From IMG/VR virus record IMGVR_UViG_3300045988_091437: a DNA stretch of 39,751 nucleotides; one strand, given 5' to 3'. The stretch is from a virus. A program made the position numbers and the translations under genes. This document shows positions 1 through 39,751 of the stretch, piece after piece; position 1 is the stretch's first letter; each line of letters begins with the position of its first letter. The notes below the pieces were generated by a model. That model did not search any database and was not told the DNA's origin. It saw only the letters and a program-made list of their open reading frames with translations.

Positions 1-55
1 ATTGACAAATATTTTTGAGTGCCATATAATATACTTATCAAGACAGCCAGTAAGG
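1..55. repeat. Terminal 55-bp exact direct repeat, copy 1 (identical to 39697-39751); circular-closure overlap
   Basis: Read directly: nt 1-55 ATTGACAAATATTTTTGAGTGCCATATAATATACTTATCAAGACAGCCAGTAAGG recur exactly at 39697-39751. Confidence 0.9.
2..30 (+). promoter_or_regulatory. Perfect sigma70-consensus promoter (candidate antitoxin sRNA promoter)
   Basis: TTGACA (2-7), 17-nt spacer, TATAAT (25-30). No ORF or RBS downstream. Also present at 39698-39726 because of the terminal repeat. Confidence 0.6.
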
Positions 56-133
56 GAGGTCAAGGCTCCCTGTCCTGGTGATCTGCACTAAAATAGCCGC
101 CTATCTTTTCCAGAGAGCAGGGCGGCTATTTCT
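37..133 (+). ncRNA. Candidate ~100-nt antisense sRNA (type I antitoxin-like)
   Basis: Bounded by the consensus promoter at 2-30 and the hairpin plus T-run at 91-133. Internal hairpin AGGGAG/CTCCCT (53-58/66-71). Its 3' end is antisense to the stop-codon region of the minus-strand 27-codon ORF. Confidence 0.4.
91..131. terminator. Bidirectional intrinsic terminator shared by convergent transcripts
   Basis: AAATAGCCGCC (91-101) pairs with GGCGGCTATTT (121-131), an 11-bp stem. T-rich tracts follow on the + strand (TTTCTTAT) and, shorter, on the - strand (TTTAG). Confidence 0.55.
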
Positions 134-209
134 TATGTGTGTATGTAAGAATCGAAACGATTAAACTGGCTGTCGTCAGAATGATCATAAATGTTTCATA
201 ATCGCTCAT
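126..209 (-). CDS. 27-aa hydrophobic peptide, type I toxin-like (Hol-Tox-like); absent from the ORF track (<60 aa)
   Basis: ATG at 209, TAG at 126-128. Hand translation MSDYETFMIILTTASLIVSILTYTHKK: one TM-like helix with a KK tail. SD GGGAGGGG (216-223) lies 6 nt upstream. Leader CCCTTCC (235-241) can pair with the SD. Confidence 0.55.
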   Translation of the reverse strand: MSDYETFMIILTTASLIVSILTYTHKK

Positions 210-277
210 AAGCATCCCCTCCCATCAAGTCTCAGGAAGGGAACCACAGCCGCTCTACTGGCTGCCTGGGTAAGTAT

Positions 278-310
278 ATTATATTGTCATGGTGCATTTC
301 TATTTGTCAT
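278..310 (-). promoter_or_regulatory. Weak candidate promoter for the toxin-like ORF
   Basis: TATAAT on the - strand (278-283). The nearest -35-like ATGACA (305-310) is 21 nt away, which is suboptimal. The region is an inverted, imperfect copy of the promoter and leader at 2-52. Confidence 0.35.
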
Positions 311-343: not shown

Positions 344-664
344 TTAAACGGTGGAGTCTTTTCTTTTATTCTTCACAAACTCTGCAAACTGGCGGATTTC
401 ATCCAGTTCGTCCTGCGTGTATTCTTCACCGTCGAAGTGGGCGGCGATGGTGGTGGGTTCAGGTTCTGTTCCGAGTAGAATATCGGCAGAAACGTTTAAA
501 GCAGAAGCTATTTTTTTTATTGTATTGACATTTGGCTCACGTTTTCCGCTTTCGTATAACGAATATGTGGACTTTGCAACGCCTATGTTCTCAGAAAGTT
601 CTTTTTGTGATAGTCCAGATTCAAGTCTGGCTTTCTTTAAATTTTCGTTAAAATTTTCACCCAT
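344..664 (-). CDS. XRE-family HTH repressor (CI/ImmR-like)
   Basis: 106 aa. LKKARLESGLSQKELSENIGVAKSTYSLYESGKREPNVNTIKKIASALNVS is a classic HTH_XRE pattern. It diverges from a Cro-like gene. RBS AGGAGGAA is upstream. Confidence 0.9.
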   Translation of the reverse strand: MGENFNENLKKARLESGLSQKELSENIGVAKSTYSLYESGKREPNVNTIKKIASALNVSADILLGTEPEPTTIAAHFDGEEYTQDELDEIRQFAEFVKNKRKDSTV

Positions 665-688: not shown

Positions 689-717
689 ATTATAGTTACA
701 GATTGAAAATGTGTCAA
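689..717 (-). promoter_or_regulatory. Consensus sigma70 promoter for the repressor (leftward)
   Basis: On the - strand: TTGACA (717-712), 17-nt spacer, TATAAT (694-689). It lies about 25 nt upstream of the repressor RBS. Confidence 0.7.
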
Positions 718-722
718 TAAAA

Positions 723-805
723 AGTTTGCAAAATGAAAAGAAAAATTTAAAAAACTATTGACAAGTTTGCAAAAAGCAATTATAGTATAAACGTAGTTTG
801 CATAA
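723..805. promoter_or_regulatory. Three operator-like repeats AGTTTGCA(A/T)AA with palindromic core TTTGCAAA
   Basis: Copies at 723-733, 764-774 (inside the rightward promoter spacer) and 795-805 (around its +1). Spacing is 41 and 31 bp. Partial TTTGC copies occur at 819-823 and 1019-1023. Confidence 0.5.
758..786 (+). promoter_or_regulatory. Rightward early promoter (PR-like)
   Basis: TTGACA (758-763), 17-nt spacer, TATAGT (781-786). It sits back-to-back with the repressor promoter. Confidence 0.7.
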
Positions 806-1964: not shown

Positions 1965-2240
1965 ATGGAAGAACTTAAAAATCTGCTTCTGGAAGTAATC
2001 CGGGAGTGCAAGCAGCCAGAGTTCCCGCCTGAACCGGTACCCACAAGGGTAGCCGCAAAGGTTCTGGGAGTGGAACAGAGCACAGTGATCAACCGAATGG
2101 AGTCCGGTGAGCTGGATATCGGGCTGGTGTTCAGATCGAAGCCGACCAAAAGAGGGCAGGCAAGTCGAAGAAGTACATACATCAGTCCCAAAAAGTTATA
2201 CGAGCTGACCGGGTTCGTATGGAAAGGAGACAAGCAATGA
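1965..2240 (+). CDS. HTH DNA-binding protein, excisionase-like
   Basis: 91 aa. TRVAAKVLGVEQSTVINRMESGEL is a MerR/excisionase-type HTH. The function as Xis is inferred only. Confidence 0.55.
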   Translation: MEELKNLLLEVIRECKQPEFPPEPVPTRVAAKVLGVEQSTVINRMESGELDIGLVFRSKPTKRGQASRRSTYISPKKLYELTGFVWKGDKQ

Positions 2241-2458
2241 AAAGAAGAGAAACAGAAGTAACAGAAGAAGCGGAAGAAACAACCGGAGCTGGTGTGATTG
2301 CCCCGATCGTAGCCACAGCCGCCGCGGCGTTCACGTTCTGGTGGTTGGGAAAATACAGTGTAATCTGCGAACGCGATATTATCGGAACTGCCATTACCGT
2401 GTGGTGTGCGGTACTGATCCGTGTGCTGATGTTGGTGAGCAAGGAGGAAGCAGAATGA
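2237..2458 (+). CDS. Small membrane protein (two hydrophobic segments)
   Basis: ATGA overlap with the upstream stop (2237-2240). MKRRETEV...GVIAPIVATAAAAFTFWWLG...IIGTAITVWCAVLIRVLMLV. Confidence 0.6.
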   Translation: MKRRETEVTEEAEETTGAGVIAPIVATAAAAFTFWWLGKYSVICERDIIGTAITVWCAVLIRVLMLVSKEEAE

Positions 2459-3048
2459 AAAAATATGAATTAACAGAGGAAACGGTCACAGTTTACGGGA
2501 AAACACTGTACCGGATCAGAGCAGTGCGTGATTTCGGGTCTGTCAAAACTGGAGAGTTCGGCGGATACATCGAGAAAGAGGAAAATCTTTCACATTTCGG
2601 CAATGCGTGGGTTTCTGGCAATGCGTGGGTTTTCGACAATGCAAGGGTTTACGACAATGCGTGGGTTTTTGGCAATGCGTGGGTTTTCGACAATGCAAGG
2701 GTTTACGACGATACGTGGGTTTACGGCAATGCAAGGGTTTACGACGATGCGTGGGTTTGTGGCGATGCAAAAGTTTACGGCGATGCGTGGGTTTCTGGCA
2801 ACGCAGAAGTTTTCAATACGAGGCATTTCTTTGTACAAGGACCGATCGGAAGCCGAAATGGATTTATTACATTTTACAGGACTAAGGATAATACGGTAGA
2901 AGTAAGATGTGGCTGCTTTTCGGGAAGCCTCCAGAAATTTGTTGATAGAGTGGAGGAAACACATGGAGGCAGTAGATACGAAAAGGAATACAAGCTTGCA
3001 GCGGAGCTGGCAAAAGTATGTATCCGTCTGGAGGGGGAAAGCAGATGA
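2455..3048 (+). CDS. Hexapeptide-repeat (beta-helix-like) protein, unknown function
   Basis: ATG 2455 after AAGGAGGAAG. 12 consecutive G/D-N/D-A-x-V-x hexapeptides (GNAWVS GNAWVF DNARVY ...). The C-terminal domain carries GCFSGSL. Confidence 0.8.
   Translation: MKKYELTEETVTVYGKTLYRIRAVRDFGSVKTGEFGGYIEKEENLSHFGNAWVSGNAWVFDNARVYDNAWVFGNAWVFDNARVYDDTWVYGNARVYDDAWVCGDAKVYGDAWVSGNAEVFNTRHFFVQGPIGSRNGFITFYRTKDNTVEVRCGCFSGSLQKFVDRVEETHGGSRYEKEYKLAAELAKVCIRLEGESR
2599..2814 (+). repeat. 12 tandem copies of an 18-bp in-frame repeat (GGCAATGCGTGGGTTTNC family)
   Basis: Unit boundaries were counted by hand: 2599 + 12x18. An exact 39-nt block recurs at a 54-bp offset (2617-2655 = 2671-2709). Confidence 0.9.
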
Positions 3049-4594: not shown

Positions 4595-5731
4595 ATGGAG
4601 ATTATCAGAGGTAAGATCCCGTGTGCAAAAAAAGTCGTGATCTACGGACCGGAAGGAATTGGAAAATCCACATTTGCAAGTCACTTCCCAGATCCCGTTT
4701 TTATTGATACCGAAGGAAGCACAAATTCTATGGATGTGGCAAGACTGCCGAAAGCATCCAGCTGGCAGATGATCCTGCAGCAGGTCGATTATGTGAGAAC
4801 CCATCCGGAAGTATGCAAAACGCTGGTCATTGATACGATCGACTGGGCAGAAGCCATGTGCGTCCAGCATATCTGCGACAAGCACCGAAAGAACGGCATC
4901 GAAGATTTTGGTTATGGAAATGGTTATGTGTATGTAAAGGAAGAACTTGGCCGTTTCCTGAACAAGCTTTCGGAAGTTGTGGAGGCAAATATCAACGTGG
5001 TACTTACGGCACATGCACAGATCCGAAAATTCGAGCAGCCGGATGAGCTTGGAGCCTATGACAGATGGGAACTGAAACTGGGGAAGAAAACGAGTTCCCA
5101 GACTTCCCCGCTGATTAAGGAATGGGCAGACATGCTGCTGTTTGCAAATTACAAAACTTTTTCTGTGGCAGTCGATGACAAGGGGAAGAAGCGAAAAGCC
5201 CAGGGCGGTGAGCGGGTTATGTATACCTCGCACCATGCATGCTGGGATGCCAAGAACCGTTACGGACTTCCAGAGGAAGTACCATTTTCCTATGCATCCA
5301 TTGTACAGGTGATTGAAGAAGGAAAAACAGAATCATCCCCTGTACCTGTCAAAACTGTGACAGAAGAAAAGAAGCAGGAAGAACCGGCGGCGAAGGCTCC
5401 GGAACCGGTCAAACAGGAAGAACCAACGGGACAGATGACAATGCCGCTTACAACGGAACCAGCACCTCAGAAGACCGAAGAGAAAGGTTATACAGAACCG
5501 GATCCAAGAATCCCGAAAGCACTCAGAGACCTGATGATAAAAGACCAGGTGGATGAGTGGAACGTCAAGAGCGTATGCGAAACAAAGGGCTATGTCCCTT
5601 ATGGGACGGAACTGTGGGAATACGATACCGTAAACCCTGGAATTGTGGACGGCCTTCTGGTGCCATGCTGGCAGCAGGTAAAGGCTGCGATCGATGCAAT
5701 GTTAAACAGTGAAGAAATACCATTTAATTAA
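4595..5731 (+). CDS. Sak4-like AAA_24 RecA-core ATPase with a long C-terminal extension
   Basis: 378 aa. KVVIYGPEGIGKSTFAS, VFIDTEGS and LVIDTI fit AAA_24/Sak4. The C-terminal P/E/K-rich linker is followed by a domain ending in EEIPFN. Confidence 0.8.
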   Translation: MEIIRGKIPCAKKVVIYGPEGIGKSTFASHFPDPVFIDTEGSTNSMDVARLPKASSWQMILQQVDYVRTHPEVCKTLVIDTIDWAEAMCVQHICDKHRKNGIEDFGYGNGYVYVKEELGRFLNKLSEVVEANINVVLTAHAQIRKFEQPDELGAYDRWELKLGKKTSSQTSPLIKEWADMLLFANYKTFSVAVDDKGKKRKAQGGERVMYTSHHACWDAKNRYGLPEEVPFSYASIVQVIEEGKTESSPVPVKTVTEEKKQEEPAAKAPEPVKQEEPTGQMTMPLTTEPAPQKTEEKGYTEPDPRIPKALRDLMIKDQVDEWNVKSVCETKGYVPYGTELWEYDTVNPGIVDGLLVPCWQQVKAAIDAMLNSEEIPFN

Positions 5732-6194: not shown

Positions 6195-7778
6195 ATGGAA
6201 TTACGACCATATCAGCAGGAGGCAAGAGAAGCCATATTTGAACAGTGGGACAGCGGGGTGAAGAAAACCCTGCTGGTCCTTCCAACCGGATGCGGTAAGA
6301 CGATCGTATTTGCCAAGGTAACAGAGGACTGTGTCCGCAGAGGTGACCGGGTGCTGATCCTGGCACACAGGGGCGAACTGCTTAAACAGGCATCCGATAA
6401 AATACGGAAATCGACCGGGCTTGGCTGTGCACTGGAAAAAGCAGAAGAAACCTGCAAGGACAGCTGGTTCCGTATCGCGGTCGGTTCCGTGCAGACGATG
6501 ATGCGTGAAAAGCGGCTCGGCCAGTTCGCAGAAGATTATTTTAATACGATCATCATAGATGAGGCACATCACTGTATTTCTGACAGTTACCAGCGTGTGC
6601 TGCAGCATTTCCCAGATGCCCATGTACTGGGCGTGACAGCCACACCGGACAGGGGCGATATGCGGAACCTTGGTTCCTATTTTGAAACGCTGGCATATGA
6701 ATACACACTTCCAAAAGCGATCAAAGAGGGTTACCTGACGCCGATCAAAGCCCTGACGATCCCATTAAAGATTGACATGAGCGGCGTAACGGTACAGGCA
6801 GGTGACTTTAAAGCCAGTGACATCAGTACTGCCCTGGATCCGTATCTGCAAGGGATCGCGGAAGAGATGCAGAAGTACTGCAAAGATAAAAAGACGGTGG
6901 TATTTTTGCCACTGGTAAAGACCAGCCAGAAATTCCGGGATCTGTTGAATGAATACGGATTCTGTGCCGCAGAAGTAAATGGAGACAGCCAGGACCGGGC
7001 AGAGATCTTAAAGGATTTTGAAGAAGGGAAATATAACGTATTATGCAATTCCATGTTGCTGACAGAAGGATGGGACTGCCCATCCGTGGACTGTGTGGTT
7101 GTCTTAAGACCTACAAAAGTACGCAGCCTGTACTGTCAGATGGTGGGGCGTGGCACCAGGCTGTCACCGGGGAAAGACCACCTGCTTTTACTGGATTTTT
7201 TATGGCACACAGAAAGACATGAGCTGTGTCACCCGGCAAGCCTGATCTGCGAGAACGAGGAAGTGGCACAGAAGATGACGGAAAATCTGGAAAAGGAAGC
7301 AGGTATGCCGGTTGACATCGAGGAGGCAGAGAAGACGGCATCGGAGGACGTTGTCGCACAAAGAGAAGAAGCACTGGCAAAACAGCTTGCAGAAATGAAG
7401 AGACGCAAAAAGAAACTTGTGGATCCGCTGCAGTTTGAGATGAGCATCCAGGCAGAAGACCTGTCCGGGTATGTGCCAAGCTTTGGATGGGAAATGGGAC
7501 CACCTTCTGATAAACAGAAAAACGCACTTGAGAAGCTGGGGATCATGCCGGATCAGATCGACAACGCCGGGAAGGCAGCTAAGATATTAGACCGCCTGGA
7601 CAAGAGAAAACGGGAAGGCCTTACAACCCCGAAACAGATCCGCTTCCTGGAGGGAAAAGGATTCCAGCATGTCGGTACCTGGCAGTTTGAAAAGGCGAAG
7701 AACCTGATCGACCGCATAGCGGCAAATGGCTGGCGAGTCCCAATGGACATAGATCCTGGAACGTATAAAGGAGTATAA
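6195..7778 (+). CDS. SF2 DEAD/DEAH-box DNA helicase
   Basis: 527 aa. Motifs LRPYQ, PTGCGKT (motif I), IIDEAHH (motif II), GVTATP (motif III), and a helicase C domain with GRGTR. Confidence 0.9.
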   Translation: MELRPYQQEAREAIFEQWDSGVKKTLLVLPTGCGKTIVFAKVTEDCVRRGDRVLILAHRGELLKQASDKIRKSTGLGCALEKAEETCKDSWFRIAVGSVQTMMREKRLGQFAEDYFNTIIIDEAHHCISDSYQRVLQHFPDAHVLGVTATPDRGDMRNLGSYFETLAYEYTLPKAIKEGYLTPIKALTIPLKIDMSGVTVQAGDFKASDISTALDPYLQGIAEEMQKYCKDKKTVVFLPLVKTSQKFRDLLNEYGFCAAEVNGDSQDRAEILKDFEEGKYNVLCNSMLLTEGWDCPSVDCVVVLRPTKVRSLYCQMVGRGTRLSPGKDHLLLLDFLWHTERHELCHPASLICENEEVAQKMTENLEKEAGMPVDIEEAEKTASEDVVAQREEALAKQLAEMKRRKKKLVDPLQFEMSIQAEDLSGYVPSFGWEMGPPSDKQKNALEKLGIMPDQIDNAGKAAKILDRLDKRKREGLTTPKQIRFLEGKGFQHVGTWQFEKAKNLIDRIAANGWRVPMDIDPGTYKGV

Positions 7779-13488: not shown

Positions 13489-13560
13489 CGGAACATAGCT
13501 CAGCGGCGAGAGCAGTCTCATGAGTAGACAAGGGCGAAGGTTCGAGTCCTTCTGTTCCGA
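13489..13560 (+). tRNA. tRNA-like gene with an irregular anticodon arm (anticodon formally UGA; identity unresolved)
   Basis: The acceptor stem is CGGAACA/TGTTCCG followed by A. The D arm is GCTC-AGCGGCGA-GAGC and the T arm is GAAGG-TTCGAGT-CCTTC. The anticodon arm has only 4 bp (GTCT/AGAC) with loop CATGAGT, which puts A at position 33. The variable loop is short. Confidence 0.6.
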
Positions 13561-37116: not shown

Positions 37117-37134
37117 GTAGTCAAAATGTAGTCA
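37117..37134 (+). repeat. Two direct GTAGTCA repeats (candidate arm-type sites, right arm) overlapping the int 3' end
   Basis: GTAGTCA at 37117-23 and 37128-34, in the same orientation as the left pair. Confidence 0.5.
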
Positions 37135-38293
37135 CTTTTTCAGTGCTGTCAGAAGTATTATTTTGATATGATTTTTTTGCGAAATCGTTCAGCTTCTGGA
37201 TGGATTTTCCTTCCTGCCTCCGCAGTTCTGCGTAGGTATCCAGTAACATCTTCGAATTACTATGCCCCATGATCTCCACCGCTTCCATGATATCAATGCC
37301 GGAATAATACAGCATGGTTGCATATTCATGCCGGAATGTATGCGATCCCAGCCCCGGACACATATCTAGATCGAACTTGATGCGGCCGTTTTCATAGTGA
37401 TGTGTGCCGCCGCAGGCAGTGTTCAATGTCCGCTTGATCCGCTCGAACAGCCTGCGATACTGCGACTTTTTCAGATAGCTGCCATCAGTTCCGGGAAACA
37501 GAAGATTACCCTGTAATGTAGACAGATACTTTTTCAGGACGTCCGCCAGTGGATCCAGCAGATAGATCTCACGCTCTCCACTGTCTGTTTTCGTGTCTTT
37601 GAGCACGGCAGTTTCTCCAACGAACTTAACTGCCTTGTTGACAGTGATCTTTTTCCGGGCAAAATTGATATCAAACCGTGTCAGAGGGATGATCTCCTGT
37701 CGCCGCATTCCGGTATACAGCAACATATGCAGCAGTGTACTTGCCTGCGGATCCAGCTCTAAGTCTTCTAGGTGGATACGTTCCAGCTCTGTCAGTGCCC
37801 GTTTTTTCTTCTTCGGTGCAGGATCTTTTTCGATATTTTCCGCAACATTCTTGAACAGCAGGCCGTCATCAATGGCAGCACGCATGATCTGGTTGACTGT
37901 CTGGTAGTAACGACGCTGCAGATCGGCGTGACCTTTTAGTGCATTGTATCCGGTCTGAACATCTGTTTTTTTAATCTGCAACAGTTTCAGACCATCCAGT
38001 GCGGCAGTGTGGTTTTTCAGAATGTTCCGATAACCTTCGATCGTGTTCGTTTCACGCCCGGATTTGTACAGTTCTAACCACTTCCATTTATACGCCCCGA
38101 ATATCACGTTCTTTTCTGATACATAGATGCCTTTGCTGGTCTGCTCGATCACCTCGGCTTTCTTGCGTTCCAGCTCAGCAACACTACGACCATATACCTG
38201 TATACGGACTCTTTTTCCGTTTTCCGGATTTATTTCATCGGTAGTTACCCATGCGGCGTACCTGCCGTCTTTTCTCTTTTTGTATTTTGCCAT
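37121..38293 (-). CDS. int: Tyrosine integrase
   Basis: 390 aa. N-terminal arm-binding-type domain (KRKDGRYAAWVT). Catalytic motifs TGMRRQE, HTFRHEYAT and GHSNSKMLLDTYAE. Confidence 0.9.
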   Translation of the reverse strand: MAKYKKRKDGRYAAWVTTDEINPENGKRVRIQVYGRSVAELERKKAEVIEQTSKGIYVSEKNVIFGAYKWKWLELYKSGRETNTIEGYRNILKNHTAALDGLKLLQIKKTDVQTGYNALKGHADLQRRYYQTVNQIMRAAIDDGLLFKNVAENIEKDPAPKKKKRALTELERIHLEDLELDPQASTLLHMLLYTGMRRQEIIPLTRFDINFARKKITVNKAVKFVGETAVLKDTKTDSGEREIYLLDPLADVLKKYLSTLQGNLLFPGTDGSYLKKSQYRRLFERIKRTLNTACGGTHHYENGRIKFDLDMCPGLGSHTFRHEYATMLYYSGIDIMEAVEIMGHSNSKMLLDTYAELRRQEGKSIQKLNDFAKKSYQNNTSDSTEKVTTF

Positions 38294-38370: not shown

Positions 38371-38454
38371 GCTTAGAGATGATCATACCGGTCTCCAGAC
38401 CTGTATAGATTCGCTGATCCGCTTCGGTGCTGGTAACACTGGGGCGGATTTTTT
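38371..38454 (+). ncRNA. Candidate ~85-nt sRNA antisense to the lipoprotein-int intergenic region
   Basis: Bounded by the extended -10 promoter and a 13-bp-stem terminator (38417-38449) followed by TTTTTT. No ORF or RBS. Confidence 0.35.
38417..38454 (+). terminator. Rho-independent terminator on the + strand
   Basis: ATCCGCTTCGGTG pairs with CACTGGGGCGGAT (13 bp, 3 G-U pairs), loop CTGGTAA, then TTTTTT. No + strand CDS lies upstream. Confidence 0.65.
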
Positions 38455-38467
38455 GCTTTGATTTTAT

Positions 38468-39148
38468 TTATTCTGAAAATTTCATATTGTCGATAGTATC
38501 TACAAATTCATCATATACACTGTTATCAACAATTTCTTCACCATAGCCATTTGTCTTAGGTATTGCGATATAAATATATACAATTCTATGTCCAGTATCT
38601 ATAGATACAAGATTCATGAAAGTGTTTTTGTAATAGTACATTGTTGATTGAGCAGTTTTGCCATCTACTGAAATATTGTCTGTATAAAATTCTGAATATG
38701 AATCATCATCTTTCAGAGACGAAAGTGGAGCACCTAAAAATGTTTCGGATACGGATGAAATAGATTCGGCGTATTCAAAAAAATTTATCATGATGGGGGT
38801 ATCCTGACAGCGATAAGTTACGCTCGGAAGCTCTGCATCAAGATCAGATTTTATTATTTTCCAGTCATCTGGTATATCTATATCAATTCCGAAATCCTCA
38901 AAAGGAAACGAAAGAGAAGCATCAGATACAGCAAGCGTTTCGGTCTGAGCTGTTGTTTCTGTCTGCACTACGCTTTCTGTTTGTGATTCAGTTTCAGAAG
39001 ATTCATTCTCGGTCTCAGAAAAGCTTTCAGTTTGTTGCTGTGTTTCAGACGAAACGGTCTCTGTGCTGGATGTATTTTTGCTTCCACAGGATGTTGCAGC
39101 AAAAACAGTCAGGCATAATAAAAATGTGGTTAAAATTTTCTTTTTCAT
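38468..39148 (-). CDS. Lipoprotein (candidate superinfection-exclusion moron)
   Basis: 226 aa. Signal peptide plus lipobox-like FAATSC. S/T/E/Q-rich linker. The gene is visibly more AT-rich than its neighbours. Confidence 0.75.
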   Translation of the reverse strand: MKKKILTTFLLCLTVFAATSCGSKNTSSTETVSSETQQQTESFSETENESSETESQTESVVQTETTAQTETLAVSDASLSFPFEDFGIDIDIPDDWKIIKSDLDAELPSVTYRCQDTPIMINFFEYAESISSVSETFLGAPLSSLKDDDSYSEFYTDNISVDGKTAQSTMYYYKNTFMNLVSIDTGHRIVYIYIAIPKTNGYGEEIVDNSVYDEFVDTIDNMKFSE

Positions 39149-39176: not shown

Positions 39177-39665
39177 TCAAAGGCTTTCGCCTGTGACTTC
39201 ACTTTTCTCCATCACCGCCAGTGACGGCTCAAAGAATACAACATAATTATCTACTTCGACACACACACCATACTTAGAACGGTAGCGGTCAATCGCATCC
39301 TGAAAAAATTCTTCGGTAACTCCAAGATATTCAGCGGCTTCGTGCCTTGAATGACAGCCTTGCTTATATGCATTTACCAGTCCGATCAGACCGATCTGCT
39401 GGTTGTATGCCCAGAGTCTGCCTTTTAATTCCTGTTTGCGGTTCTCTACATCGCTCTGATCGGTGATATCCCCAACGGCGGTGTGATAGTGTCCAATTTC
39501 CTCAGCAAGAACACAGGCTTTTTCAACGGATGTGTCGATTTTGTTGCTGATGGCAACCATTCCATCACAATACAGTCCTTTAATTCTATCACTCTGAAAA
39601 TTGTAGTCTACTATATCTATACCTTCCTTGCAGGCTTGCTCTTGCAATTCTTCATAAGTGTTCAT
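39177..39665 (-). CDS. ImmA/IrrE-like (M78, DUF955) peptidase
   Basis: ATG 39665 after GGGAGG. KACVLAEEIGHYHT...ENRKQELKGRLWAY is M78-like, with EEIGH in place of HExxH. It belongs to the int/repressor lysogeny module. Confidence 0.7.
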   Translation of the reverse strand: MNTYEELQEQACKEGIDIVDYNFQSDRIKGLYCDGMVAISNKIDTSVEKACVLAEEIGHYHTAVGDITDQSDVENRKQELKGRLWAYNQQIGLIGLVNAYKQGCHSRHEAAEYLGVTEEFFQDAIDRYRSKYGVCVEVDNYVVFFEPSLAVMEKSEVTGESL

Positions 39666-39696: not shown

Positions 39697-39751
39697 ATTG
39701 ACAAATATTTTTGAGTGCCATATAATATACTTATCAAGACAGCCAGTAAGG
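39697..39751. repeat. Terminal 55-bp exact direct repeat, copy 2
   Basis: Identical to nt 1-55. Confidence 0.9.

Follow-up and report, generated by a model that had tools for sequence, protein, structure and literature searches.

A probable type I toxin-antitoxin cassette of the TxpA/BsrG family in the immunity region of a gut Lachnospiraceae phage

In the par locus of the Enterococcus plasmid pAD1 (Fst; RNA I/RNA II), the toxin messenger RNA (mRNA) and a short antitoxin RNA converge on one shared bidirectional terminator, with extra repeat-derived complementarity at their 5' ends near the toxin ribosome-binding site. Holin-like toxins including the 27-amino-acid (aa) BH0344 and its E. faecalis homologue EF3263 were placed in the TxpA family by PSI-BLAST and Pfam (Fozo et al. 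2010, PMC2887945); EF3263 is accompanied by an antisense RNA of ~110 nucleotides (nt) and is toxic in E. coli (PMC2887945). The antitoxin RatA is 222 nt long, and Bacillus type I antitoxins share 100–140 nt of complementarity with their toxin mRNAs (PMC6562991). In bsrG mRNA, nt 1–35 pair with nt 232–262 to form helix P1 in a region antisense to the antitoxin SR4, and binding of SR4 frees the bsrG 5' end and extends the helix at the Shine-Dalgarno (SD) sequence from 4 to 8 bp (PMC3834814). Here we describe a region of ~300 bp at positions 1–310 of the IMG/VR virus record IMGVR_UViG_3300045988_091437 (39,751 nt; the whole of this stretch is called the window below), in which a minus-strand gene for a small hydrophobic peptide faces a short plus-strand RNA. 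We consider it likely that this region constitutes a type I toxin-antitoxin cassette, self-contained and belonging to the TxpA/BsrG (Pfam Hol_Tox) family, and that it operates by the mechanism set out below.

Relation to described type I systems

Like the window cassette, bsrG/SR4 of the B. subtilis prophage SPbeta is prophage-borne and encodes a Hol_Tox peptide that ends in lysines and begins with the motif M-x-x-Y-E-x-[LF]-M-I, which is common to BsrG and the cassette peptides. Both loci place the SD in a stem and have a convergent antitoxin whose terminator lies across the stop codon of the toxin and draws its U-tract from the Lys codons. The 5' end of bsrG mRNA is proven to pair with a 3' segment antisense to the antitoxin, and an equivalent helix is predicted here. 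Matches of the cassettes to the Rfam BsrG model, on the correct strand though under its cutoff (scores below), add to the resemblance. The window cassette is more compact, with a toxin of 27 aa compared to 38 aa for BsrG and an antitoxin of ~100 nt with two hairpins compared to 183 nt with four hairpins for SR4. Furthermore, one central hairpin serves both strands, whereas bsrG/SR4 has two separate terminators, and the 3' arm of the P1-like helix lies beyond this hairpin with the two promoters in an inverted repeat, which the SPbeta locus does not have. The skin-element system txpA/RatA and EF3263 share with the window the toxin family and an antisense RNA that overlaps the 3' end or 3' untranslated region (UTR) of the toxin mRNA.

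A preliminary description of this region, made from its letters alone, had named par/Fst, txpA/RatA and bsrG/SR4 as examples of such loci. The last two are true relatives, whereas par/Fst is only an architectural analogue. The window resembles par in its compact layout and in a possible contact between the 5' tail of one RNA and the SD loop of the other. However, its peptide is not of the Fst family (no Fst-family match in Pfam or NCBIfam scans at E up to 1), and extended 5'-5' pairing lacks statistical support. In addition, the repeats in the window DNA are inverted and the two RNAs are therefore same-sense, while the direct repeats of par make its RNAs complementary. Type I modules in Clostridioides difficile prophages (e.g., CD0977.1-RCd11 of phiCD630-1) help maintain the element, as experimental evidence indicates (PMC7699646); they match the window in being type I systems in prophages of gut Clostridia with the maintenance role that we propose here. 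Their toxins (34–59 aa) have no sequence similarity to the B. subtilis families (PMC6563280), and both family and RNA architecture are unlike those of the window. For the Lachnospiraceae, TxpA-like sequences had been predicted in Clostridium bolteae in silico only (PMC6563280). Our literature search found no promoter-inclusive inverted repeat, immR-immA location or RNA partner described for Lachnospiraceae members, nor did it turn up a paper that describes this subfamily or connects ImmA with type I toxins.

The peptide gene and its leader

The putative toxin open reading frame (ORF; 126..209, minus strand) comprises 27 codons encoding MSDYETFMIILTTASLIVSILTYTHKK and a TAG stop (128..126). It starts at the SD-proximal ATG at 209; a second in-frame ATG at 215 (ORF 215..126, 29-aa form) abuts the SD GGGAGGGG (216..223, minus strand) and is an unlikely start. 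The peptide has a hydrophobic core, one predicted transmembrane helix and an HKK tail. Relatives, whose recovery is described below, encode ~60 distinct peptides of 25–31 aa in a conserved frame, with two subtypes, MS[TD]YE.. (type A) and MVTYSDLF.. (type B). Differences by codon position (e.g., 1569/1206/3114) are 2–2.6-fold more frequent at the third position than at the other positions, and synonymous changes outnumber nonsynonymous changes by ~3:1 across the cassette ORFs. By this substitution pattern, the ORF is a real gene under purifying selection on the protein.

On Pfam Hol_Tox (PF16935, the TxpA/BsrG toxins), where 23.3 bits is the gathering cutoff, the proven type I toxin BsrG scored 34.5 bits, and two cassette homologues also passed: MSDYETFMIMLTFANLIVAILTYAHKK, which is 81% identical to the window peptide, with 30.9 bits and MSTYEELSLIVSVALLIVAILNLTHKK with 23.7 bits. 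Hol_Tox matches at E < 0.01 were obtained for 13 of 32 family peptides, while most type B (MVTY...) peptides had no match at that level. Membership thus rests on the cassette family and not on the window sequence alone, since homologues pass the cutoff and the window peptide does not. We assign the cassette family to TxpA/BsrG (Hol_Tox) on a resemblance that is consistent in strand and register and that, for the window itself, stays below the curated thresholds. The preliminary suggestion of a Hol-Tox-type peptide was therefore right at the family level. Its description of the cassette as unannotated was partly superseded: by exact look-up in NCBI nr, an identical 29-aa peptide is named "Putative Holin-like Toxin (Hol-Tox)" and relatives are named "putative holin-like toxin", although no annotation of the RNA was found. 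An NCBIfam scan of the peptide gave no match, a PHROGs scan gave only weak matches to families without known function, and tblastn of a family peptide against phages gave only insignificant matches (E ≥ 5).

Upstream of the ORF, the leader contains an anti-SD, UUCCCUUCC (235..243, minus strand), that pairs with the SD in both the minimum-free-energy and the centroid folds. For the window type, the predicted probability of an unpaired SD is 0.00 compared to 0.33–0.35 with a shuffled leader, and the mean across cassettes is 0.22 compared to 0.42 with shuffled leaders. SD and anti-SD co-vary between subtypes (CCAGCUUCC/GGAGCUGG, CAGCCGCC/GGAGGCUG, CCACUCC/GGAGUGG and UUCCCUUCC/GGGAGGGGA). A MAFFT alignment of type A toxin leaders was too heterogeneous for a full consensus fold and recovered the SD helix alone. 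These folds predict that the SD is sequestered in a stem of the toxin mRNA, as in the bsrG/SR4-type architecture. Further upstream, a conserved toxin-side motif, TGACAATATAATATACTTACCCAGG (265..289, minus strand), includes a −10 TATAAT at 283..278, and the toxin mRNA probably starts near 271 with the 5' end (A)CCCAGG.

The opposite-strand RNA, the central hairpin and the inverted repeat

The antitoxin small RNA (sRNA) promoter at 2..30 (plus strand) matches the consensus at 12 of 12 positions: TTGACA (2–7), a 17-nt spacer and TATAAT (25–30). Through the terminal overlap of the contig it also appears at 39698–39726. The 39.7-kb genome contains two unique perfect promoter sites, this one and that of the repressor gene (717..689), where 0.00 are expected by chance. 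A perfect TTGACA-N16-18-TATAAT lies on the opposite strand in 69 of 89 unique cassettes, 247–277 nt from the start of the toxin motif. The candidate antitoxin sRNA itself (38..137, plus strand; ~100 nt) comprises a tail and a hairpin on its 5' side, then a linker and a terminator, and matches our covariance model with 77 bits; RNA 36–145 folds into the 53–71 hairpin and the terminator (z = −4.6). Within the 5' hairpin (41..84), the inner stem pairs 53–58 with 66–71 (AGGGAG/CUCCCU) and the outer stem pairs 46–50 with 75–79. Compensatory changes occur in 5/5 pairs of the inner and 2/3 pairs of the outer stem (alignment A2), with 98% of cells paired.

Across 37 non-redundant sRNAs, pairing extends to 95.8% of alignment cells, with compensatory changes at 19 of the 25 pairs; none of 500 shuffles equals this covariation, and slid controls pair at 40–54%. 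The covariance model (R1) built from these 37 homologues found 90 copies in 100 cassette loci, opposite the toxin, and no copy in ImmA loci that lack the cassette or in SPbeta (SR4 was not detected). No Rfam family matched the cassette region at gathering score. By its covariation, the plus-strand RNA is a conserved structured RNA. Its position makes it a candidate antisense gene complementary to the toxin mRNA, and as a ~100-nt antisense partner it is previously undescribed, no annotation or description of it having been found.

Both putative transcripts converge on the central hairpin (91..131, both strands), an 11-bp perfect inverted repeat (91–101/121–131) that overlaps the toxin stop codon and extends in relatives to a 13-bp consensus stem in which 10 of 13 pairs show compensatory changes. 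U-rich tails follow it on both strands. G-U pairs favor folding on the plus (sRNA) strand, where at least 6 of the 9 nt after the stem are always U; the toxin strand has 3–7 of 9 and is more variable. The hairpin thus appears, from its sequence, to act as the sRNA terminator and as a weaker terminator for the toxin strand. The perfect complementarity between toxin mRNA and sRNA over the hairpin is at least 45 nt, and the sRNA U-tract (~129–140) is the reverse complement of the toxin Lys-Lys-stop codons. A side observation concerns this dual coding, seen in window 126–140 and in SPbeta (L184, 555–566), where the antitoxin terminator U-tract complements the C-terminal Lys codons and stop of the toxin; protein and RNA function may therefore both constrain the conserved KK tail.

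The elements named in the preliminary description (the 27-codon ORF with its SD, the pairing leader, the perfect promoter driving a ~100-nt RNA, and the 11-bp hairpin with T-rich tracts on both strands) were all recovered as described. The alignment of homologous loci that it had proposed bears out the type I anatomy as well, in that every part shows conservation or covariation over more than 100 homologous cassettes.

The preliminary description also noted a duplication of the promoter in inverted orientation. We found a 29-nt inverted repeat (24–52/256–284; 90% complementary) that covers the −10 box and ~22 nt, and in the window an ATGACA at 310..305, 21 nt upstream of the toxin-side −10. 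The −35 of the sRNA promoter lies outside the repeat. The left arm (24..52) carries the −10 box and 5' end of the sRNA on the plus strand and, on the toxin strand, would provide the 3' strand of the P1-like helix; the right arm (256..284) covers the −10 box of the toxin promoter together with the start of the mRNA, and this mRNA 5' end would provide the 5' strand of P1. The same-sense 10-mer GACAGCCAGT that had been reported as unexplained indeed occurs at 42–51 (plus), at 174..165 (minus) and, with one mismatch, at 266..257 (minus), three times within 230 nt. Its copy within the ORF was rejected as a conserved regulatory element, as it is present in 2 of 54 unique cassettes. Because it is confined to the window's own peptide variant, this copy is probably a lineage-specific chance occurrence. 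Genome-wide, GACAGCCAGT at up to one mismatch occurs 12 times compared to 2.4 expected from dinucleotide shuffles (0/100 shuffles reach 12), for example at 6984, 10867, 11543, 12490, 14263, 20421, 22181 and 30290; codon usage is one possible cause.

The other two copies most likely represent the two arms of a P1-like closing helix predicted for a read-through toxin mRNA. Within a locus, the toxin-RNA segment after CCCAGG is near-identical to the sRNA segment after ACAAGA/G, and both differ between loci, while the adjacent hexamers CCCAGG and ACAAGA are fixed differences between the arms in all loci. Alignment of 35 distinct arm pairs (alignment A3) shows 13 consecutive pairs maintained, 7 of which have changed in a compensatory manner; the covariation score was attained in none of 500 shuffles. 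Arm-to-arm differences are mostly transitions, which are tolerated as G-U pairs 107 times on the toxin strand compared to 24 on the other strand. A 244-nt read-through toxin mRNA (274..31) folds with the P1-like helix at −88.7 kcal/mol (z = −4.6), and the outermost helix of the Rfam BsrG model aligns on the inverted repeat. In the bsrG P1 arrangement the antitoxin is necessarily same-sense to the toxin 5' end. Since the 3' arm in the window lies beyond the central hairpin, at the sRNA 5' end, the two promoters consequently form an inverted repeat. Read-through is plausible because the hairpin is less optimized on the toxin strand and because 33 nt without an evident promoter precede the ImmA start.

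We also weighed whether the inverted repeats act as DNA, either as ends of an element resembling a miniature inverted-repeat transposable element (MITE) or as borders of an invertible segment that swaps strong and weak promoters. The 29-nt repeat does bound the unit, both ends start with TGACAA, and the cassette is facultative among related phages and found in varied contexts. However, the internal segment is inverted in 0 of 89 unique cassettes, the window flanks show no target-site duplication, no recombinase is associated with the cassette, and the arms carry the same fixed differences in all loci. Arm transitions that preserve G-U pairing on one strand indicate selection at the RNA level. 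We therefore rejected an inversion switch or MITE, for which no inverted variants and no target-site duplication were found, and regard a DNA-level role as extremely improbable.

A second account retains the type I reading and dispenses with P1: a short toxin mRNA would end at the central hairpin, and the sRNA 5' domain would act in trans on the toxin 5' UTR near the SD, as in par RNA II/RNA I or SprA1AS/SprA1. The loop just 5' of the SD contains CUUGAU (224..229, minus strand), which is complementary to the sRNA 5' tail AUCAAG (37–42, plus strand). A Watson-Crick complement of 4–7 nt between sRNA nt 1–9 and this loop is present in 29 of 29 type A cassettes, including the window (mean 5.17 compared to 3.17 for shuffled loops), with co-varying states. 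Column scans show toxin-V × sRNA-antiV' pairs with covariation, and the toxin-strand U-tract is adequate in most loci. On this complementarity we tentatively suggest that the sRNA 5' tail may contact the SD loop in trans. On the other hand, type B cassettes lack the tail-loop complement though they keep the same-sense V segment, and the partner strand in the sRNA is buried in its own well-supported hairpin. An extended duplex in trans, in which the 5' domain of the sRNA pairs with the 5' UTR of the toxin mRNA (RNAduplex −32 kcal/mol), was rejected as the main explanation of the 10-mer. It does not surpass dinucleotide-shuffled controls (mean z = −1.35; for the window type, z is about 0), and its net gain after intramolecular folding is only −2.9 kcal/mol. 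This account strikes us as rather unlikely.

In the mechanism that we favor, with the P1-like helix, a weak −10-only promoter (283..278), probably together with read-through from the repressor gene, would yield the toxin mRNA. Its 5' UTR would fold the anti-SD (243..235) onto the SD (223..216) and thereby limit translation of the 27-residue membrane peptide with its Lys-Lys tail. The consensus promoter at 2–30 would drive the non-coding RNA (38–137), whose 5' hairpin is followed by an efficient terminator complementary to the toxin stop codon and 3' end; toxin transcripts that read past the hairpin would be complementary to the sRNA over its full length. If bsrG/SR4 and txpA/RatA are a guide, sRNA-mRNA pairing may trigger RNase III-type decay and/or lock the SD helix. 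In P1, the read-through toxin mRNA would fold back on itself, its 5' end pairing with a 3' stretch that is antisense to the 5' end of the sRNA, such that the two RNAs would share a same-sense, co-varying 5' segment. Binding of the sRNA would then displace the 5' end of the toxin mRNA, an effect demonstrated for SR4 on bsrG mRNA. The cassette, expressed from the immunity region of the lysogen, could serve prophage addiction (stabilization) or abortive infection.

Several observations weigh against this reading. On Hol_Tox the window peptide scored 19.3 bits in its 29-aa form and 19.5 bits in its 27-aa form (E about 1e-3), under the cutoff; pairwise BLASTP against BsrG gave no match, and hhalign gave a probability of only 5.7%. 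On the Rfam model of the BsrG toxin mRNA (RF01412, gathering cutoff 55 bits), the window matched at 283..25 (minus strand) over model positions 1–231 of 259 with 19.7 bits (E = 0.009), likewise under the cutoff. Four other cassettes (3/7 further cassette loci scanned) scored 19.3–30.2 bits and the SPbeta control 210 bits, so that this match is a resemblance and not membership. The toxin promoter has no −35 that is conserved in relatives. The guaranteed antisense overlap is ~45 nt compared to 123 nt for bsrG/SR4 and 100–140 nt in Bacillus systems. The bsrG-type combination of at least 100 nt of complementarity and separate terminators is absent here, ~100 nt being reached only for read-through transcripts. 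P1 formation depends on this putative read-through because the 3' arm lies past a plausible terminator, and no terminator is visible for the long form of the toxin mRNA. The toxin-strand U-tract is reasonable (6/9 U in the window, at least 6 in 25 of 37 loci), so that a short toxin mRNA ending near 85 may dominate, in which no P1 is possible. Finally, constraints of another kind on each RNA could account for the G-U asymmetry of the arms, and toxicity of this subfamily is so far a prediction, our literature search having found no expression data.

This last point also bears on a further explanation, namely that the peptide is a conserved non-toxic membrane protein (e.g., for superinfection exclusion or membrane regulation of the lysogen) tuned by a cis-antisense RNA. 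Its location in a lysogeny module fits such a role, as does the adjoining lipoprotein-like moron gene, whose best PHROG match is a family of unknown function (E = 3.8e-05) and which weakly matches a superinfection-exclusion family (E = 0.021). Within the toxin family itself, BsrE and probably BsrH are toxic only on overexpression (PMC6562991), and TxpA is not toxic in E. coli (PMC2887945). Set against this, regulation typical of toxins is conserved (SD sequestration, antisense overlap, and an antisense promoter of consensus strength opposite a weak sense promoter), pseudogenized and tandem copies are typical of toxin-antitoxin loci, and experiments have shown toxicity for BsrG, TxpA and EF3263, which belong to this family (PMC2887945, PMC6562991). 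We judge a non-toxic peptide improbable.

Distribution and the repressor-ImmA setting

To collect relatives, we used two routes. A search with ImmA gave 70 loci, with an identical peptide in the ten closest. The diverged copy MSDYETFMIMLTFANLIVAILTYAHKK lies at the same position in a Blautia metagenome-assembled genome (MAG) whose ImmA is only 59% identical, and another copy lies elsewhere in a second Lachnospiraceae MAG; the layout is the same in all three loci. A search with TGACAATATRATATNYTTACCCAGG, the conserved motif on the toxin side, picked up 55 IMG/VR contigs and 60 genome stretches, mostly with Lachnospiraceae names (genera include Blautia, Dorea, Acetatifactor, Hungatella, Anaerostipes and Roseburia, and phages), and yielded 113 instances representing 89 unique cassettes. 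BLASTN of the cassette against phage records and against plasmids gave no match. The phage is one of gut Lachnospiraceae, and the cultured isolate Hominisplanchenecus faecis CLA-AA-H246, a member of this family, carries a 100% identical locus (contig NZ_JAJEQE010000082.1).

Eight of the 89 unique cassettes are decayed by truncation, stop-codon loss, an ATG-to-ATT change or deletion of toxin and terminator, and tandem arrays of two or three cassettes, often of mixed subtypes, occur in L159 (4228–5207), L131 (7154–7573), L167 (2591–3025), L171 and L178. Such decay and tandem arrays are typical of toxin-antitoxin loci. As side observations, the decayed copies in L114 (~10410), L071/L085/L125 and L129/L159/L153 show ATG to ATT, ORFs cut after 5–10 codons, or stop-codon loss giving products of at least 41 aa. 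A remnant in L096 (11197–11320) and L111 lacks the toxin ORF and central hairpin, and in it the mirrored sRNA hairpin with the sRNA promoter directly adjoins the toxin promoter with its 5' segment. This layout is consistent with deletion between short direct repeats and reveals the underlying direct-repeat relation. Several genomes carry cassettes on more than one contig. In L148, from an Acetatifactor MAG, a near-threshold Rfam match to the Streptococcus sRNA SpF66 (2148–2365, minus strand; 40.5 bits, cutoff 42) lies ~90 nt from a cassette.

In the window, nt 1–55 are identical to nt 39697–39751. The contig is therefore circularly closed, with 39,696 bp of unique sequence and position 1 continuing from the window end, which makes the ImmA gene contiguous with position 1 and bears out the preliminary placement of the cassette between the repressor and ImmA genes. 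Directly upstream and co-oriented is an XRE/cI-type repressor gene (344..664, minus strand; Pfam HTH_3, E = 3.5e-19). Directly downstream across the circular junction, also co-oriented, is a gene for an ImmA-like M78 metalloprotease (39177..39665, minus strand; Peptidase_M78, E = 2.5e-5). The minus-strand order thus runs from the repressor through the 310-nt region to the ImmA-like protease, the lipoprotein-like gene (39148..38468) and, last, a tyrosine integrase gene (38293..37121).

This setting recurs. Among 116 instances, a repressor homologue ends 27–79 nt upstream in 53 and an ImmA homologue starts ~320–368 nt after the toxin motif in 41, always co-oriented with the cassette and with flanking proteins 31–95% identical; 11 instances adjoin co-oriented integrases. 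In ImmA loci without the cassette, the repressor stop usually lies 5–55 nt from the ImmA start, indicating that the cassette is a facultative insert in a tight operon junction. The ImmA start codon in the window is 33 nt from the cassette with no separate promoter evident in between, and immA transcription therefore probably runs through the cassette. Two further explanations build on this arrangement. In the first, the region is a transcriptional insulator or attenuator between immR and immA, in which the bidirectional hairpin and strong opposing promoter would limit anti-repressor and integrase expression in lysogens and the peptide would be secondary. Interruption of an otherwise tight junction, the invariable orientation of the 41 cassettes found exactly there and the lack of an evident immA promoter are all compatible with it. 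However, purifying selection acts on the peptide, over half of the cassettes occur in other contexts (by integrases, elsewhere or in tandem arrays) without a nearby immA, and a terminator alone needs no conserved ORF, SD/anti-SD pair or sRNA 5' hairpin. We consider an insulator very unlikely as the primary function.

In the second, the cassette would gate the supply of ImmA and thereby prophage induction, a type I system co-opted as a post-transcriptional lysis-lysogeny switch. Transcription of immA, and possibly of the genes downstream, would have to cross the toxin gene, the leaky central hairpin and a region antisense to a strongly expressed sRNA, and the helix formed by the P1 arms, together with sRNA binding, would decide the fate of the read-through immA mRNA. 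The suggestion arises because, in at least 41 diverged phages, the cassette sits co-oriented inside the normally tight immR-immA junction. We regard such gating as doubtful.

Elsewhere in the window, the immunity switch region (683–815) contains the perfect repressor promoter (717..689, minus strand), a near-perfect promoter (758–786, plus strand) facing a cro-like HTH gene (1053–1256), and three AGTTTGCA(A/T)AA direct repeats at 723, 764 and 795 that are likely operators. An early-region ORF (2341–3048, plus strand) encodes a protein with many tandem degenerate repeats of the type GNAWVFDNARVYD, and a phage-encoded tRNA gene lies at 13489–13560 (plus strand; Rfam tRNA, 48.5 bits). A GC-rich hairpin (…CCGC…GGTGCTGGTAACACTGGGGCGG…) follows the integrase in the window at 38416–38450; similar hairpins abut cassettes in L009 (~4826–4860) and L153, and this one may be a terminator associated with the element end or attachment site.

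As the type I cassette that we favor, the locus extends a known family and leaves its concepts unchanged. It contributes a widespread subfamily (more than 110 loci) together with the RNA partner and a covariance model of that RNA, and also a compact architecture and a testable account of the co-varying inverted repeat, in a dominant gut family for which only in-silico "TxpA-like" peptide matches had been reported. The existence of a cultured lysogen with an identical locus makes the predictions directly testable. Lysogeny modules of gut phages could be annotated better on this basis, and Lachnospiraceae genetics could gain a counter-selection or RNA-device part. The recurrent placement between repressor and ImmA genes could reveal a link between toxin-antitoxin RNA control and prophage induction.

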